Of a stretch of DNA of 64,000 nt, positions 43,374 through 51,093 are shown one piece after another. The stretch lies in IMG/VR virus record IMGVR_UViG_3300009873_000001; one strand, given 5' to 3'. How positions within the stretch are numbered: the first letter of the stretch is position 1; each line of letters begins with the position of its first letter. The notes beneath the pieces were generated by a model that was not told where the DNA came from, ran no database searches, and was given only the letters and a program-made list of their open reading frames with translations. This stretch comes from a virus (taxonomy: Duplodnaviria > Caudoviricetes). Made by a program: the position numbers and the translations under genes.

Positions 43374-43446
43374 TGGACCCAGCGGGAATTCCACCCGCGA
43401 CCTCTGGTTTGCAGGACCAGCGCTCTCGTGACTGAGCTATGAGCCC
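43374..43446 (-). tRNA. tRNA-Ala(TGC)
   Basis: cloverleaf, G3-U70, C33. Confidence 0.85.
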
Positions 43447-43450
43447 TTGA

Positions 43451-43522
43451 AGCGGACGGCGGGAGTTGCACCCGCGGCCTTGACCTTGGAAGAGTCTTGC
43501 TCTGCTGCTGAGCTACGCCCGC
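43451..43522 (-). tRNA. tRNA-Gly(TCC)
   Basis: loop CTTCCAA, U73. Confidence 0.9.
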
Positions 43523-43938
43523 TTGGTTGTTGCGCGTCTGTGGGTTCTGTCAGCGTGACAGTTAGCACAGACCACTTCGCATTTCTTGACCTCGGCAAGC
43601 GCTGCTTTTCGGCGATTGCGCCTCACCAGGTTGGAAACGCTGTCTACTTTATCTTGCTTTGTGTGGTCGAACTGCATTTGCCATGGGCTCCATCTCTTTT
43701 TGCAGTCGGCACACGGCACATTCTTTAGGATCTCCACCTCGGCCTTGAGCTTGGCGCGGGCCGCATTGGCGTAACCGCGATTTTTCTGCTTTGCAGATTC
43801 GTTTTCTCTGCGCCAGGTGTTGCGATATTCGTTTTGACATGGAAGGCACCAGGAATGCCTTCTTTCCGACATCCTGCTTCTCAAAGAGAAGTCATTGACT
43901 GGCTTGCGTTCCTTGCAGCGCGAACATGTTTTTCTCAT
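43513..43938 (-). CDS. HNH endonuclease-like protein
   Basis: CSRC/CLPC, CADC...FDH...KCEVVCANCH. Confidence 0.8.
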   Translation of the reverse strand: MRKTCSRCKERKPVNDFSLRSRMSERRHSWCLPCQNEYRNTWRRENESAKQKNRGYANAARAKLKAEVEILKNVPCADCKKRWSPWQMQFDHTKQDKVDSVSNLVRRNRRKAALAEVKKCEVVCANCHADRTHRRATTKRA

Positions 43939-44375
43939 GCCTCAGCCTTCCACGACCAGTGAACCGCCACAGGCCCGAGTGCGATCGGCTTCTCGGGAGC
44001 CCCGAGGTGCTTCCGTAGCTTGTCGAACTTGGGCGGGACATGATCCCACGTCGCGCCGTGCGGCTGCTTGTCGATCCTTGAGATCGCCAGCATGAACATG
44101 CGTCCCTTCGTTCCGGTGTCCATGACCTGGAGGGAGACGCAGCAACCGGCGACCTTGATCGACAGCTCGTGCTCGTCCATGAGCGCGAAACCGCGGCGCA
44201 TGGTCTCCTGGACGGACTCCCTTTCGAGCGCCTCGCCCAGCGTGATTGAGCCCGTCTTGCGGACGGACTCGAGCAGCTCGGTATCGTCGGGCAGGCCCTT
44301 GCGGCTCATGACGGCGCGCCTGGCGCGCGCCTTGAGCTCGTCGAGCTTCTTCGCCCAGGACGGGGTCCACTTCAT
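43935..44375 (-). CDS. hypothetical protein
   Basis: codon bias; similar to 19049. Confidence 0.65.
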   Translation of the reverse strand: MKWTPSWAKKLDELKARARRAVMSRKGLPDDTELLESVRKTGSITLGEALERESVQETMRRGFALMDEHELSIKVAGCCVSLQVMDTGTKGRMFMLAISRIDKQPHGATWDHVPPKFDKLRKHLGAPEKPIALGPVAVHWSWKAEA

Positions 44376-44403
44376 GCCGCCACGCTAGCAAGGGCCACTG
44401 ACA

Positions 44404-44474
44404 AGACCCGCCTCGGACTTGCACCGAGTTCTCCAGCTTTGCAGGCTGGCGCCTCACTCTATGGCTCGCGAGTC
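44404..44474 (-). tRNA. tRNA-Cys(GCA)
   Basis: CCAGC-CTGCAAA-GCTGG, U73. Confidence 0.85.
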
Positions 44475-44477
44475 AGA

Positions 44478-44551
44478 TAGCCTGCCTGGGACTTGCACCC
44501 AGTTTCCCCGGTTGAAAGCCGGGACTCCTACTACATAGAGATGAGCAGGCC
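44478..44551 (-). tRNA. tRNA-Glu(TTC)
   Basis: CCCGG-CTTTCAA-CCGGG. Confidence 0.8.
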
Positions 44552-44555
44552 ATGT

Positions 44556-44689
44556 TTGCCGACAAGTGGTGCAGAGAAGCTTTTTTGGCGTTCTGCCGTT
44601 GAACTACCTCGGCACGGAAAGCCGAGGGCCCGAGTCGAACGGGCGTCTCCCTCTTGGAATGAGATGGATTCCCTACTGGCATTCGGCAA
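44556..44689 (-). ncRNA. Y-RNA-like ncRNA a
   Basis: TTGCCGAATGC...CTTGTCGGCAA terminal stem; T arm, looped acceptor stem, D arm. Confidence 0.8.
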
Positions 44690-44761
44690 TGGGTCCGGAG
44701 GGACTTGCACCCTCGTACGCCGGGTAAGAGCCGGCAGTAATAGCTGCTATACGACGGACCC
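44690..44761 (-). tRNA. tRNA-Lys(CTT)
   Basis: GCCGG-CTCTTAC-CCGGC. Confidence 0.85.
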
Positions 44762-44770
44762 GTGGATTGA

Positions 44771-44842
44771 TAGAGGCGCTCGGTACTGCCCCGAGTTCTT
44801 CCGGGTAAAGGCCGGGTACTTCACTTACAAAGTTTCGCCTCC
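44771..44842 (-). tRNA. tRNA-Lys(TTT), divergent T-loop
   Basis: CCGG-CCTTTAC-CCGG; T-loop GGCAGTA. Confidence 0.7.
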
Positions 44843-44895
44843 GCGACTGGTGCCGCGGAGACGTTTGCGCTCTCGCATGTCTTGTTCTCCCCTGT

Positions 44896-44967
44896 TGATC
44901 CTGGCAGGCTTCGCACCTGCGGCCTTCGCCATGTCAAGGCGACGCTCTGCTCCTGAGCTACAGGACC
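44896..44967 (-). tRNA. tRNA-Val(GAC)
   Basis: TCGCC-TTGACAT-GGCGA. Confidence 0.9.
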
Positions 44968-45084
44968 GTTGATTGATTATCAGCATGTCGGTTCATATCG
45001 ATATCAAATCACTGCCGAGCAAGCTGGAGTTGCGATCTCCGAGTCTAGGCAGTAATGAATACTGATAGAAGCGACGGCAAGCGA

Positions 45085-45171
45085 AGGAGCGCGGCGGACT
45101 TGCACCGCAGCCAGCGAGCCGGCCGTTCCGATTTCAAATCGGTCCCCGACGCCTGGTCGAGTTCACGCTCC
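45085..45171 (-). tRNA. tRNA-Ser(TGA)
   Basis: loop TTTGAAA, long variable arm. Confidence 0.8.
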
Positions 45172-45183
45172 GTTGTTGACGGA

Positions 45184-45254
45184 TGGAGCTATCGAGAGTC
45201 GCACTCGAGATTCGACCTTGCCGAGGTCGCGTGATCCTACTTCACCATAGCCCC
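45184..45254 (-). tRNA. tRNA-Ala(GGC)
   Basis: G3-U70; loop TCGGCAA. Confidence 0.85.
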
Positions 45255-45257
45255 AGA

Positions 45258-45329
45258 TGGACACACTTGGGAATCGCACCCAAAACTCTGCTTTGCGAAA
45301 GCAGCGTGATCCTGTTTCACTAGTGGCCC
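45258..45329 (-). tRNA. tRNA-Ala(CGC)
   Basis: CTGCT-TTCGCAA-AGCAG; bulged acceptor. Confidence 0.8.
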
Positions 45330-49820: not shown

Positions 49821-49824
49821 GTGA

Positions 49825-49954
49825 TTCCGCGACAAGGGGTGCTGAGACATTTATCCAGGCGCGCTGCTATTACGCTATACCCGATCTTTCGACCGGGCAT
49901 CCGGATTCGCACCGGCACTTCCTGGGCCATGTAGTCCCTGCTGCATTCGCGGAA
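49825..49954 (-). ncRNA. Y-RNA-like ncRNA f (YrlA-type topology)
   Basis: TTCCGCGAATGC...CTTGTCGCGGAA; T arm, GAAA-capped acceptor, D arm, joined through the anticodon stem CCAGG/CCTGG. Confidence 0.85.
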
Positions 49955-50026
49955 CAGCCCGCCAGGGACTTGCACCCTGAACCTTGCGCTCCAAAGGCGC
50001 TCGCTCTTCTGTTGAGCTAGCGGGCG
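49955..50026 (-). tRNA. tRNA-Gln(TTG)
   Basis: loop CTTTGGA, G73. Confidence 0.85.
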
Positions 50027-50037
50027 ACGAGAATCGA

Positions 50038-50109
50038 CTGCCCCTCTAGGAATCGCACCTAGGTCTCTCGGGTCAGAGCCGAGCGTCCGTGCTGCTGGAC
50101 TAAGGGGCA
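50038..50109 (-). tRNA. tRNA-Gln(CTG)
   Basis: CTCGG-CTCTGAC-CCGAG, U1-A72. Confidence 0.9.
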
Positions 50110-50119
50110 ATGTAGTTCG

Positions 50120-50347
50120 TTACGCGGACATGTTGATCTTCGTGCTACCGACGGCCTGAGCTAGCGTTTGTCGTGCGCCACTCGGGCCTCCAAACAAGAA
50201 TCGCGCTCGAGAGCGCTGTCGCCAGTGGCCGTGTTCGATTCGCGCCTGGCGCTCATCTGGCTTCGCACGCTTGCAGCGTCGCAGGTGGGAAGTAAGGCCG
50301 TTGGCCGAAAACTCTCCTTGGCAATACGGGCAGGTGGGATTGTTCAT
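50120..50347 (-). CDS. small zinc-finger protein
   Basis: CPYCQGEF...L..H..RC. Confidence 0.55.
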   Translation of the reverse strand: MNNPTCPYCQGEFSANGLTSHLRRCKRAKPDERQARIEHGHWRQRSRARFLFGGPSGARQTLAQAVGSTKINMSA

Positions 50348-50350
50348 GAT

Positions 50351-50423
50351 CAGGGGCGCTCGGAGTTGCACCGAGATCTCGGGTTTTGGAGGCCCGCCGG
50401 TTCCTGTTACCTGTCACGCCCCT
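50351..50423 (-). tRNA. tRNA-Trp(CCA)
   Basis: loop CTCCAAA, A1-U72, G73. Confidence 0.85.
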
Positions 50424-50430
50424 ATGCGAG

Positions 50431-50515
50431 CTTATGGGGTAGGACTCGCACCTACAGAGGGTCGCCCCACCTGGTTAACAGCCAGGCCCGCTACTGAATT
50501 ACGGTATACCCATGA
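50431..50515 (-). tRNA. tRNA-Asn(GTT) with atypical long variable arm
   Basis: CCTGG-CTGTTAA-CCAGG followed by GGG-GCGA-CCC. Confidence 0.75.
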
Positions 50516-50587
50516 CTCACCGGGTAGGGATCGCACCTACGACCCTCGCGTTAACAGCGCGCCGCTCTACTGCTGAGCTACCGGTGA
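50516..50587 (-). tRNA. tRNA-Asn(GTT)
   Basis: loop CTGTTAA, U1-A72, G73. Confidence 0.9.
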
Positions 50588-50593
50588 AGGAGA

Positions 50594-50665
50594 TGACGCC
50601 GAAGGGACTTGCACCCTCAGCCTCCTGGCTGAGAACCAGGCGATCTTCTGTTGATCTACGGCGCC
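50594..50665 (-). tRNA. tRNA-Glu(CTC)
   Basis: CCTGG-TTCTCAG-CCAGG. Confidence 0.85.
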
Positions 50666-50669
50666 ATAC

Positions 50670-50738
50670 TCGGCCGACAAGAAGCGACCGTGAGAGTTCA
50701 TTTCCCTAAAATGTACTCACGACCATGCATTCGACCGA
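50670..50738 (-). ncRNA. minimal Y-RNA-like ncRNA g (69 nt, stem only)
   Basis: TCGGTCGAATGC...CTTGTCGGCCGA. Confidence 0.7.
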
Positions 50739-50812
50739 TTGCGGAGGCGAGATTCGCACTCGCGACCTCAGGGTTATGAGCCCTGCGAGCTACTGGGCTG
50801 CTCCACTCCGCG
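50739..50812 (-). tRNA. initiator tRNA-fMet(CAT)
   Basis: C1xA72 mismatch, GGG/CCC anticodon stem. Confidence 0.9.
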
Positions 50813-50816
50813 ACGA

Positions 50817-50890
50817 CGCGCACGACGGGACTTGCACCCGCAAACCTTCGGCTCGACAGGCCGCTACTCTTCTAATTGAGCTACGTGCGC
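50817..50890 (-). tRNA. tRNA-Asp(GTC)
   Basis: loop CTGTCGA, G73. Confidence 0.85.
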
Positions 50891-50894
50891 AGGT

Positions 50895-51021
50895 TCCGAC
50901 GACAAGAGGAGCCAAGTGGCTTTGATCTAGCCCACGCCCTCCCACGAGTGGGAGTCCCGGGAGTCGAACCCAGGTCGATCCGTTTATCAGACGGATGTAC
51001 ACCCAGCGAGCATTCGTCGGA
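50895..51021 (-). ncRNA. Y-RNA-like ncRNA h
   Basis: TCCGACGAATGC...CTTGTCGTCGGA; Ile-like anticodon arm TCCGT-CTGATAA-ACGGA, T arm, looped acceptor. Confidence 0.8.
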
Positions 51022-51093
51022 TGGACACGCCCGGAATTGCACCAGGTCCTTGCGGTCTTCAGCCGCGCGCTCTACTGATTGAGCTACGTGTCC
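51022..51093 (-). tRNA. tRNA-Phe(GAA)
   Basis: loop CTGAAGA. Confidence 0.9.

Follow-up and report, generated by a model that had tools for sequence, protein, structure and literature searches.

A 45-gene tRNA array in a phage-like genome with A18/G55 in place of the G18/U55 elbow pair

The DNA analysed here (the window) is a stretch of 64,000 nucleotides from the virus record IMGVR_UViG_3300009873_000001 (Duplodnaviria; Caudoviricetes). Between positions 43374 and 51093, on the minus strand, it carries exactly 45 tRNA genes in 7.7 kb, for all 20 amino acids and the initiator. The conserved G18 and U55 of the tRNA family model RF00005 are replaced in this array by a co-varying A18/G55. On a narrow balance of probability, sequence comparisons lead us to favour the view that the array is a self-stabilising, TruB-independent full replacement tRNA pool, belonging to a mobile family of long arrays and carried by a 274-kb phage-like genome.

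The tRNA set and its elbow

Our own parser identified 34 of the genes, and 11 further genes were added by hand from T-arm hairpins. The parser was empty on three shuffled windows, and a chance origin of the array is therefore excluded. From the same region, ARAGORN recovers 32 of the 45 genes and Rfam (RF00005, at the gathering score) 31, so gene finders overlook about one-third of such arrays and phage tRNA content is under-counted. The cloverleaf of RF00005, with acceptor, D, anticodon, and T arms, is present, the genes that do not reach the gathering score having been parsed by script or by eye. Two or three genes may be weak, among them Thr(ugu), whose D arm is degenerate, and Met(cau) at 45633, whose D arm is very short. 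There are 43 distinct anticodons, and all 61 sense codons are readable provided that A34 of the Arg tRNA is inosine; the anticodon of Ile(uau) decodes the A-ending isoleucine codon without lysidine. Transcription would run from Phe at the front to Ala(ugc) at the end of a long, co-oriented, and non-periodic run, as in the long tRNA arrays (L-arrays).

The contacts G19-C56, U54-A58, G53-C61, and 15-48 are kept or compensated in nearly all genes of the array; Lys(uuu) departs from the norm at positions 54 and 58. Discriminator bases, acceptor identity pairs, and the 15-48 pair mostly suit the anticodon, with His and Glu(uuc) being atypical. None of the 32 array genes scored encodes CCA, and no sigma-70-like promoter was found for the minus strand of the array. 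Variable arms depart from expectation at 48289–48738 and 50432–50512 (minus strand), being short in four Leu tRNAs and long in one Asn tRNA.

G18 and pseudouridine-55 are taught as universal features of cytoplasmic tRNAs. Reviews likewise treat U55 and G18 as conserved (PMC7912444). Position 55 is G in 44 of the 45 array tRNAs. The T loop starts with TGC in 42 of these, with TGG in Ala(ugc), and with GGC in Lys(uuu). Across the 45 D loops, A18 is clear in 39, five read AGG, and one reads GG. The five AGG loops are ambiguous and are best read as A18-G19-G20, and an unambiguous GG occurs in none of the 44 G55 genes. The sole GG D loop and the sole TTC T loop coincide in Ile(uau) (48747–48818), which is thus G18/U55. 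A second compensated pair is present in Ala(ugc) at 43374, where A18 and C19 face G55 and G56; the loops therefore still pair, and this fixes the numbering register. Compensations at 19-56 occur elsewhere too, in both elbow types. The full parse bears out the sequence-only reading, made earlier from the letters of the window, which had reported 45 tRNAs for all 20 amino acids plus the initiator, 44 with G55 (42 of them TGC), D loops mostly with AG instead of GG, and a single TTC tRNA at 48747 that keeps GG.

The D loops are also poor in uridine. At positions 16/17, U makes up 25% in the window and 15% in a related array of Geminisphaera, compared with 88–89% in dispersed host genes and 79% in canonical arrays. 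Within mixed arrays, A57 goes with G55 (p = 2e-4), but D-loop uridine loss is only weakly tied to it (p = 0.08) and was dropped as a molecule-level partner of G55. The idea that the canonical elbow marks rare-anticodon genes was also dropped: the gene at 27841 has a 9-base loop, and the holdouts differ among arrays.

A18/G55 in related arrays, Y-like RNAs, and cellular genomes

Positions 18 and 55 co-vary across phage arrays, as the sequence-only reading had proposed to check. Distinct tRNAs from viral loci comprise 401 with A18/G55, 410 with G18/U55, six with A18/U55, and one with G18/G55, so that seven of 818 are discordant. In a set of 141 viral and cellular loci the corresponding counts are 346, 240, one, and three. 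Because the loci were selected by G55-bearing patterns, these counts measure coupling and not prevalence, and related contigs are non-independent. Loci selected by HNH likeness alone gave 34 A18/G55, 30 G18/U55, and no discordant tRNAs.

Close homologs of the array HNH protein led to seven contigs. In five of them G55 is found in 26 of 27, 30 of 33, 30 of 31, 23 of 24, and 5 of 5 genes; of the remaining two, one has a pair of G55 genes and the other is a locus without an array. One of the seven is a 287-kb phage with a Gp23 capsid gene, and in two the locus lies amid bacterial housekeeping genes. Gene order in four arrays follows that of the window (rho 0.82–0.96). In a complete 275-kb sister phage the array is headed by Ro60 and comes with the same HNH and helix-turn-helix (HTH) proteins. 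The contig that holds the HNH protein of the window array is 273,580 bases long, which places the array in a large phage-like genome of about 274 kb. The family is thus found, with synteny, in both phages and bacterial chromosomes, the patchy pattern of horizontally spreading L-arrays. Among the genes linked to L-arrays, HNH is present in the window, and RtcB and Ro60 were seen in relatives only.

Because gene order and HNH are shared across the family, the conversion was largely inherited. An HNH homolog is present in 10 of 10 highly converted phage contigs and in 4 of 10 little converted ones; this association is real but is explained by shared descent, and HNH was rejected as the cause of the swap. 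Phage arrays are converted at every level from 6% to 100%. In arrays that are more than 75% converted the initiator is the usual holdout (12 of 13); the initiator of the window is converted. The reverse is seen in four phage contigs (L001, L010, L020, and L232), where the initiator alone is A18/G55. The best hit of the window genes is a canonical gene of the same amino acid in 12 of 33 cases, against 2.0 expected. This resemblance implies that many tRNA lineages were converted in the ancestor of the family and that each passed through an intermediate that is seldom observed.

A Planctomycetota array (L097:2000-2400) contains three near-identical tandem tRNA-like repeats with G55 T arms. Nostoc loci (L023, L105, L118, L134, and L140) carry single A18/G55 tRNA-like genes with odd anticodons (amber-reading cua, agu) and an acceptor stem common to them.

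Eight Y-like RNAs are interspersed among the tRNA genes of the window, four of them with weak YrlA matches. The covariation that the sequence-only reading had extended to these RNAs is present: 44553–44690 reads GG/TTC, as does 48372–48505, and AG/TGC is clear in 49823–49953 and plausible in 49457–49590. For the Y-like RNA at 48946–49140, the stretch near 49095–49115 presumably resembles the helix 69-71 region of 23S rRNA.

The same pair occurs in essential cellular genes. Of 81 Pelagibacteraceae genomes, 48 carry a tRNA-Phe with G55 and 29 one with U55; no genome carries both, and in the 48 the G55 gene is the only tRNA-Phe found. In the Pelagibacteraceae Phe genes that were read, A18 goes with G55 and G18 with U55; in a genome on a single contig, A18/G55 is confined to the one Phe gene, G18/U55 being present in all of the further 28 genes parsed. 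All three tRNA-Ala genes of a Micrarchaeia genome (G001) are A18/G55 and the remainder are not, and the Thr(ugu) gene found in five Planctomycetota genomes has G55. Since the essential tRNAs of these genomes were found in the A18/G55 form only, the ribosome, the synthetase, the elongation factor, and the processing enzymes must accept this elbow. These sole-copy genes indicate that the A18/G55 design works in translation. The acceptor stems of Pelagibacteraceae tRNA-Phe (L144-L151 and L033), a gene that adjoins tRNA-His, are unusually varied from genome to genome, which may reflect repeated gene replacement.

The pairing is also plausible in structural terms. G18-U55 belongs to the trans Watson-Crick/sugar-edge family of pairs (PMC10484739). 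In rRNA, over half of that family consists of A-G and G-U, its two commonest members (PMC2673412). In other RNAs a G-clamp is the more usual form of the T-loop (PMC2615604). We infer that A18-G55 takes the trans Watson-Crick/sugar-edge geometry in the array tRNAs. The Rfam consensus Tymo_tRNA-like has the same A-G and UGCAA loops. So have the tRNA-like ends of the RAGATH-21 consensus (RF03097), which may be a tRNA relative of the A18/G55 type.

TruB loss, the probable host, and competing explanations

In the explanation that we favour, the array tRNAs would fold and translate normally, with the elbow locked by A18-G55 instead of G18-pseudouridine-55. Such a pair would give a stable elbow without TruB and would also remove the G18 methylation site. 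During infection or translational stress, tRNAs produced in a burst could then function without maturation by TruB, above all in a TruB-less host. The loss of D-loop uridines in the same arrays is consistent with a low-modification design. Also in favour of this explanation, aminoacylation and fitness fall in E. coli when TruB is lost (PMC11214086). The difference from host tRNAs at 18/55 would be a by-product that may add protection.

Of the signals found, the distribution of truB is the clearest one in this direction. In Pelagibacteraceae, truB is present in none of the 48 genomes with G55 Phe and in 17 of 28 with U55 Phe, counts that omit one of the 29 U55 genomes (G038) and in which absence is read from assemblies and is no proof that pseudouridine-55 is absent. 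G149 and G308 contribute one truB-positive entry each to the tallies given below for Patescibacteria and for the other carriers of A18/G55, and no claim hangs on them alone. The gene is missing from four of four Patescibacteria with the swap, compared with 53 of 200 in the sample (p = 0.0045). In a Planctomycetota order that includes G003, the host of a window-like array, truB is found in 0 of 13 genomes and A18/G55 genes in 6 of 13. Across three bacterial groups, the probable host group among them, the swap thus accompanies the loss of truB, and modification independence, raised in the sequence-only reading, gains real support. The G003 order as a whole apparently has no truB, which is unusual for genomes as large as these (6.6–12.3 Mb).

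The same order is the probable host group of the window, since three lines of sequence evidence converge on it. The repeated N-terminal module of the window proteins has 23 and 12 matches in two genomes of the order and none in three outgroups; the closest relatives of the Clp-N domain of the window are in this order (61–65%); and the nearest bacterial clusters of the array HNH are mostly Planctomycetota. That the host's own tRNAs might share A18/G55, which would refute the sequence-only reading, is not borne out: in G003 each of the 32 dispersed tRNAs that were read has U55 or C55, and G55 occurs in none. Geminisphaera colitermitum TAV2, which is in culture, has G18/U55 in 45 of 45 dispersed genes and G55 in 21 of 21 genes of its array, which is followed by HNH and RtcB. 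The proposal of an orthogonal pool stands in that the set is complete and separable from the host at 18/55, but identity bases are normal and CCA is not encoded; "orthogonal" is too strong because the CCA enzyme and synthetases of the host are still needed. Such phages do not seem to bring maturation enzymes of their own, as PF01743 and RtcB occur in 0 of 10 highly converted contigs (one complete), and a PF01743 CCA-adding gene is absent from the complete sister phage.

Several observations weigh against TruB independence. A TruB-family gene is present in 39 of the 50 other genomes that carry A18/G55, including Geminisphaera with its fully converted array, and Micrarchaeota keep Pus10 and Cbf5; a strict rule that A18/G55 occurs only where truB was lost is ruled out by these carriers. 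G003, itself truB-less, uses G18/U55 in its dispersed tRNAs, so unmodified U55 is good enough for the cell. The independent truB events are few: the loss in marine Pelagibacteraceae is probably one event, and of the four Patescibacteria hits three belong to a single tRNA lineage. The host assignment draws on no more than five genomes, and the set still requires TadA for Arg(acg) and retains G37.

A conflict at the RNA level is possible, though doubtful, as the driving force, and it does not exclude TruB independence. In this reading G18/U55 would be recognised by a toxin or defence nuclease of the host, or else by a nuclease with which the phage attacks host tRNAs; the array would have escaped it, and mimics with the canonical elbow would act as decoys. 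The set is complete down to its initiator, and host and array genes are cleanly partitioned at 18/55 in G003 and Geminisphaera, both as such a conflict would have it. Holdout or deviant genes are often Lys(uuu) and the initiator. The non-translating mimics mostly keep U55: among six Y-like T loops, four have U55 and two G55, compared with U55 in one of the 45 tRNAs (p = 3e-4), and Y-like RNAs in sister arrays tend the same way. U55 mimics are, however, equally expected if selection acted on translating tRNAs only. Neighbours within the family are genes of RNA damage and repair, with Ro60 heading the G088 array and RtcB behind that of Geminisphaera, but the enrichment of Ro60 (6 of 10 highly converted against 2 of 10 other phage contigs) is not significant (p = 0.17). 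No nuclease reading 18/55 was found among the window proteins scanned, and to our knowledge none has been described. The exposed G19-C56 face, the contact of most elbow readers (PMC4810234), is unchanged, and known tRNA toxins mostly cleave anticodon loops (PMC8421152). Escape from nucleases that read the elbow or T loop, as first proposed, is thus unsupported so far, and we find no evidence here for selective destruction of host tRNAs. A combination seems unlikely, in which mobile elements use a second, TruB-independent elbow to make a complete pool distinguishable from that of the host, and tRNAs with the canonical elbow are attacked or sequestered by a putative factor, which may be the conserved HNH protein, with canonical-elbow Y RNAs tuning or decoying that factor.

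It is rather improbable that A18/G55 is a near-neutral variant, fixed once in the founder of the array family with the aid of segmental conversion between neighbours and then inherited. The conserved gene order, the G55 tRNAs in six of seven loci selected by HNH likeness alone, and the full range of conversion levels would all fit. What such drift explains poorly is a two-site change in each tRNA family through the intermediate so rarely seen among the 818 tRNAs, the more so as changing either 18 or 55 singly abolishes a yeast suppressor (PMC4117946). The likeness of window genes to canonical genes of their own amino acid would also demand many separate conversions.

Escape at the DNA level, with the T arm altered against recognition of the canonical T-loop DNA by a homing endonuclease or tRNA-targeting integrase and A18 following to restore the fold, is very improbable. 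T4 SegB, which recognises a conserved T-loop motif of tRNA genes (PMC2330249), provides a precedent, and the array holds two HNH genes, HNH homologs being commoner in highly converted contigs. Canonical T-loop motifs nevertheless remain in the array, in the Y-like RNAs and the Ile gene; the Anabaena operon has a homologous HNH and yet canonical T loops; and shared descent accounts for the HNH link. That the genes are decaying or non-ribosomal is barely credible, for all the poor D arms of two or three genes and the precedent of a staphylococcal non-proteinogenic tRNA-Gly without the G18, G19, U55, C56 set (PMC4574755): stems, discriminators, and 15-48 pairs are kept, all codons are covered, and A18/G55 genes are the sole ones found for essential tRNAs elsewhere. 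The staphylococcal type shows an uncompensated loss of GG for a single amino acid, whereas the array keeps G19-C56, co-varies at 18-55, and serves 20 amino acids.

Natural A18/G55 tRNAs bear on the open question of why TruB is retained although its loss is mild, and make it testable by swaps. In SAR11, the apparent only tRNA-Phe of many truB-less genomes is of this type. Cell-free translation with unmodified transcripts and the engineering of tRNAs would profit from a whole working set that lacks the U55 target. The conflict reading, if true, would represent a new form of tRNA self/non-self discrimination.

The array region and its relation to known systems

Features of the array region in order of transcription. 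A single number after a tRNA is its lower coordinate.
Feature	Positions	Strand	Match or source
tRNA-Phe(gaa), A18/G55	51022-51093	-	parser
Y-like RNA, permuted tRNA module, T-loop U55, D-loop partner not clear	50896-51021	-	
tRNA-Asp(guc), A18/G55	50817-50890	-	
Initiator tRNA-fMet, C1-A72 mismatch, A18/G55	50739-50812	-	
Short Y-like RNA without tRNA module, ends approximate	50667-50738	-	
Glu(cuc) 50594, Asn(guu) 50516, second Asn(guu) 50432 (long variable arm), Trp(cca) 50351; G55	50351-50665	-	
Gln(cug) 50038, Gln(uug) 49955; A18/G55	49955-50109	-	
Y-like RNA, tRNA module opened at anticodon loop, A18/G55	49823-49953	-	YrlA, E 5e-4, below gathering score
Val(uac) 49749, Gly(gcc) 49593; A18/G55	49593-49820	-	
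Y-like RNA, module probably opened in D loop, G55, probable A18	49457-49590	-	YrlA, E 0.014
Tyr(gua) 49371, Gly(ccc) 49293, His(gug) 49217, Arg(acg) 49141; A18/G55	49141-49455	-	
Long Y-like RNA without tRNA fold	48946-49140	-	
tRNA-Leu(uag), long variable arm, A18/G55	48864-48944	-	
tRNA-Ile(uau), only G18/U55 gene of the array	48747-48818	-	
Leu(caa) 48666, Leu(cag) 48589, Leu(uaa) 48510; short variable arms, A18/G55	48510-48738	-	
Y-like RNA with D arm, anticodon-like arm, and T arm, G18/U55	48372-48505	-	
Leu(gag) 48289, Ile(gau) 48216, Ser(gcu) 48125, Pro(ugg) 48042; G55	48042-48362	-	
HNH endonuclease, 192 residues, marker of the array family	47443-48021	-	Anabaena trn HNH, 34% identity, E 7e-28
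Ser(gga) 47236, Thr(cgu) 47043; A18/G55	47043-47318	-	
Y-like RNA, T arm and closed acceptor stem, U55	46936-47042	-	
Arg(ccu) 46860, Arg(ucu) 46783, Thr(ugu) 46713 (degenerate D arm), Arg(ccg) 46638; G55	46638-46932	-	
200-residue protein	45836-46438	-	weak N-terminal HTH match; similar protein in G088 sister array
Pro(ggg) 45779, Thr(ggu) 45706, Met(cau) 45633, Ser(cga) 45474; G55	within 45085-45850	-	
Pro(cgg) 45396, Ala(cgc) 45258, Ala(ggc) 45184, Ser(uga) 45085; G55	within 45085-45850	-	
Val(gac) 44896, Lys(uuu) 44771 (G54, G55, deviant T loop), Lys(cuu) 44690	44690-44967	-	
YrlA-like Y RNA, circularly permuted tRNA module, G18/U55	44553-44690	-	RF02553, 37.4 bits (gathering 69)
Glu(uuc) 44478, Cys(gca) 44404; A18/G55	44404-44551	-	
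Unknown protein, 146 residues	43935-44375	-	
Second HNH endonuclease	43513-43938	-	phrog_2255, E 4e-27
Gly(ucc) 43451, A18/G55; Ala(ugc) 43374, A18, C19/G55, G56, G3-U70 kept	43374-43522	-	

The window is 63% G+C and gene-dense, and most of its proteins are hypothetical. Besides the two HNH genes within the array, matches were obtained for a primase-like protein, a TnpB-like protein, a Clp-N protein, and a Pth2 hydrolase. The TnpB/Cas12f-like protein (642 residues, PF07282) lies downstream of the array at 38992–40920 (minus strand). A charged N-terminal module heads many unrelated window proteins, for example those of the open reading frames at 396, 5886, 18510, 29112, 30870, 52893, and 56722. 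Between the Trp and Gln genes, at 50255–50348 (minus strand), there is a possible small open reading frame with a Cys/His zinc-finger pattern.

Canonical elbows occur in the window outside the array. An inverted cassette at 27841–28441 (minus strand) holds a Pth2-family hydrolase (PF01981) and, after it, three RNAs of tRNA shape whose elbows are canonical and whose anticodon loops are abnormal (a 9-base loop, a hairpin insert, and a short loop). A lone tRNA at 53357–53431 (plus strand) has an acc anticodon, G3-U70, A73, an encoded CCA, a canonical elbow, and its own sigma-70-like promoter at 53281–53309. This tRNA could insert Ala at a Gly codon or serve as a decoy.

No isolated phage covers more than a few percent of the array, and in the literature searched, where the classic papers are covered only in part and a prior mention is possible, no description of A18/G55 tRNAs was found. 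The four interleaved RNAs with weak matches share with YrlA (RF02553) the Ro60-binding stem motif and the tRNA-like module. They differ in that all Y-like RNAs of the window fall below the gathering cut-off and two have A18/G55. A Ro60 gene is present next to sister arrays, but none was found among the window proteins scanned. The valine tRNA-like structures of tymoviruses (RF00233) have a D-loop A before G and a UGCAA T loop, and RNAs of this type are handled by the CCA enzyme, valyl-tRNA synthetase, and eEF1A (10.1101/2020.06.19.162263). Such a structure is, however, a pseudoknotted mimic that ends a plant virus RNA and not a decoding tRNA gene. The T-loop G-clamp (PMC2615604) and the trans Watson-Crick/sugar-edge A-G pairs of rRNA (PMC2673412) are similar in that G at position 2 of the T loop grips an intercalated base, but they are known from rRNA, riboswitches, and aptamers.

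Among described arrays, the trn operon of Anabaena PCC 7120 (PMC8421152) is similar as a long, tandem, and mobile array that is supernumerary to the host set. It has a homologous HNH, RtcB or Ro60 near its relatives, several A8 genes, and CCA that is mostly not encoded. Its 19 parsed tRNAs are all G18/U55, in contrast to G55 in 44 of 45 here, and unlike it the window array covers all codons, has few D-loop uridines and eight interleaved Y-like RNAs, and lies in a phage-like genome. Mycobacterium phage Bxz1 likewise has many tRNA genes with an HNH gene and a peptidyl-tRNA hydrolase nearby, but its 21 parsed tRNAs all have U55. The canonical elbows of the Anabaena operon and Bxz1 rule out A18/G55 as a known trait of described arrays. 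The array of the window therefore shows the testable features of L-arrays, and its elbow differs from that of every described array.

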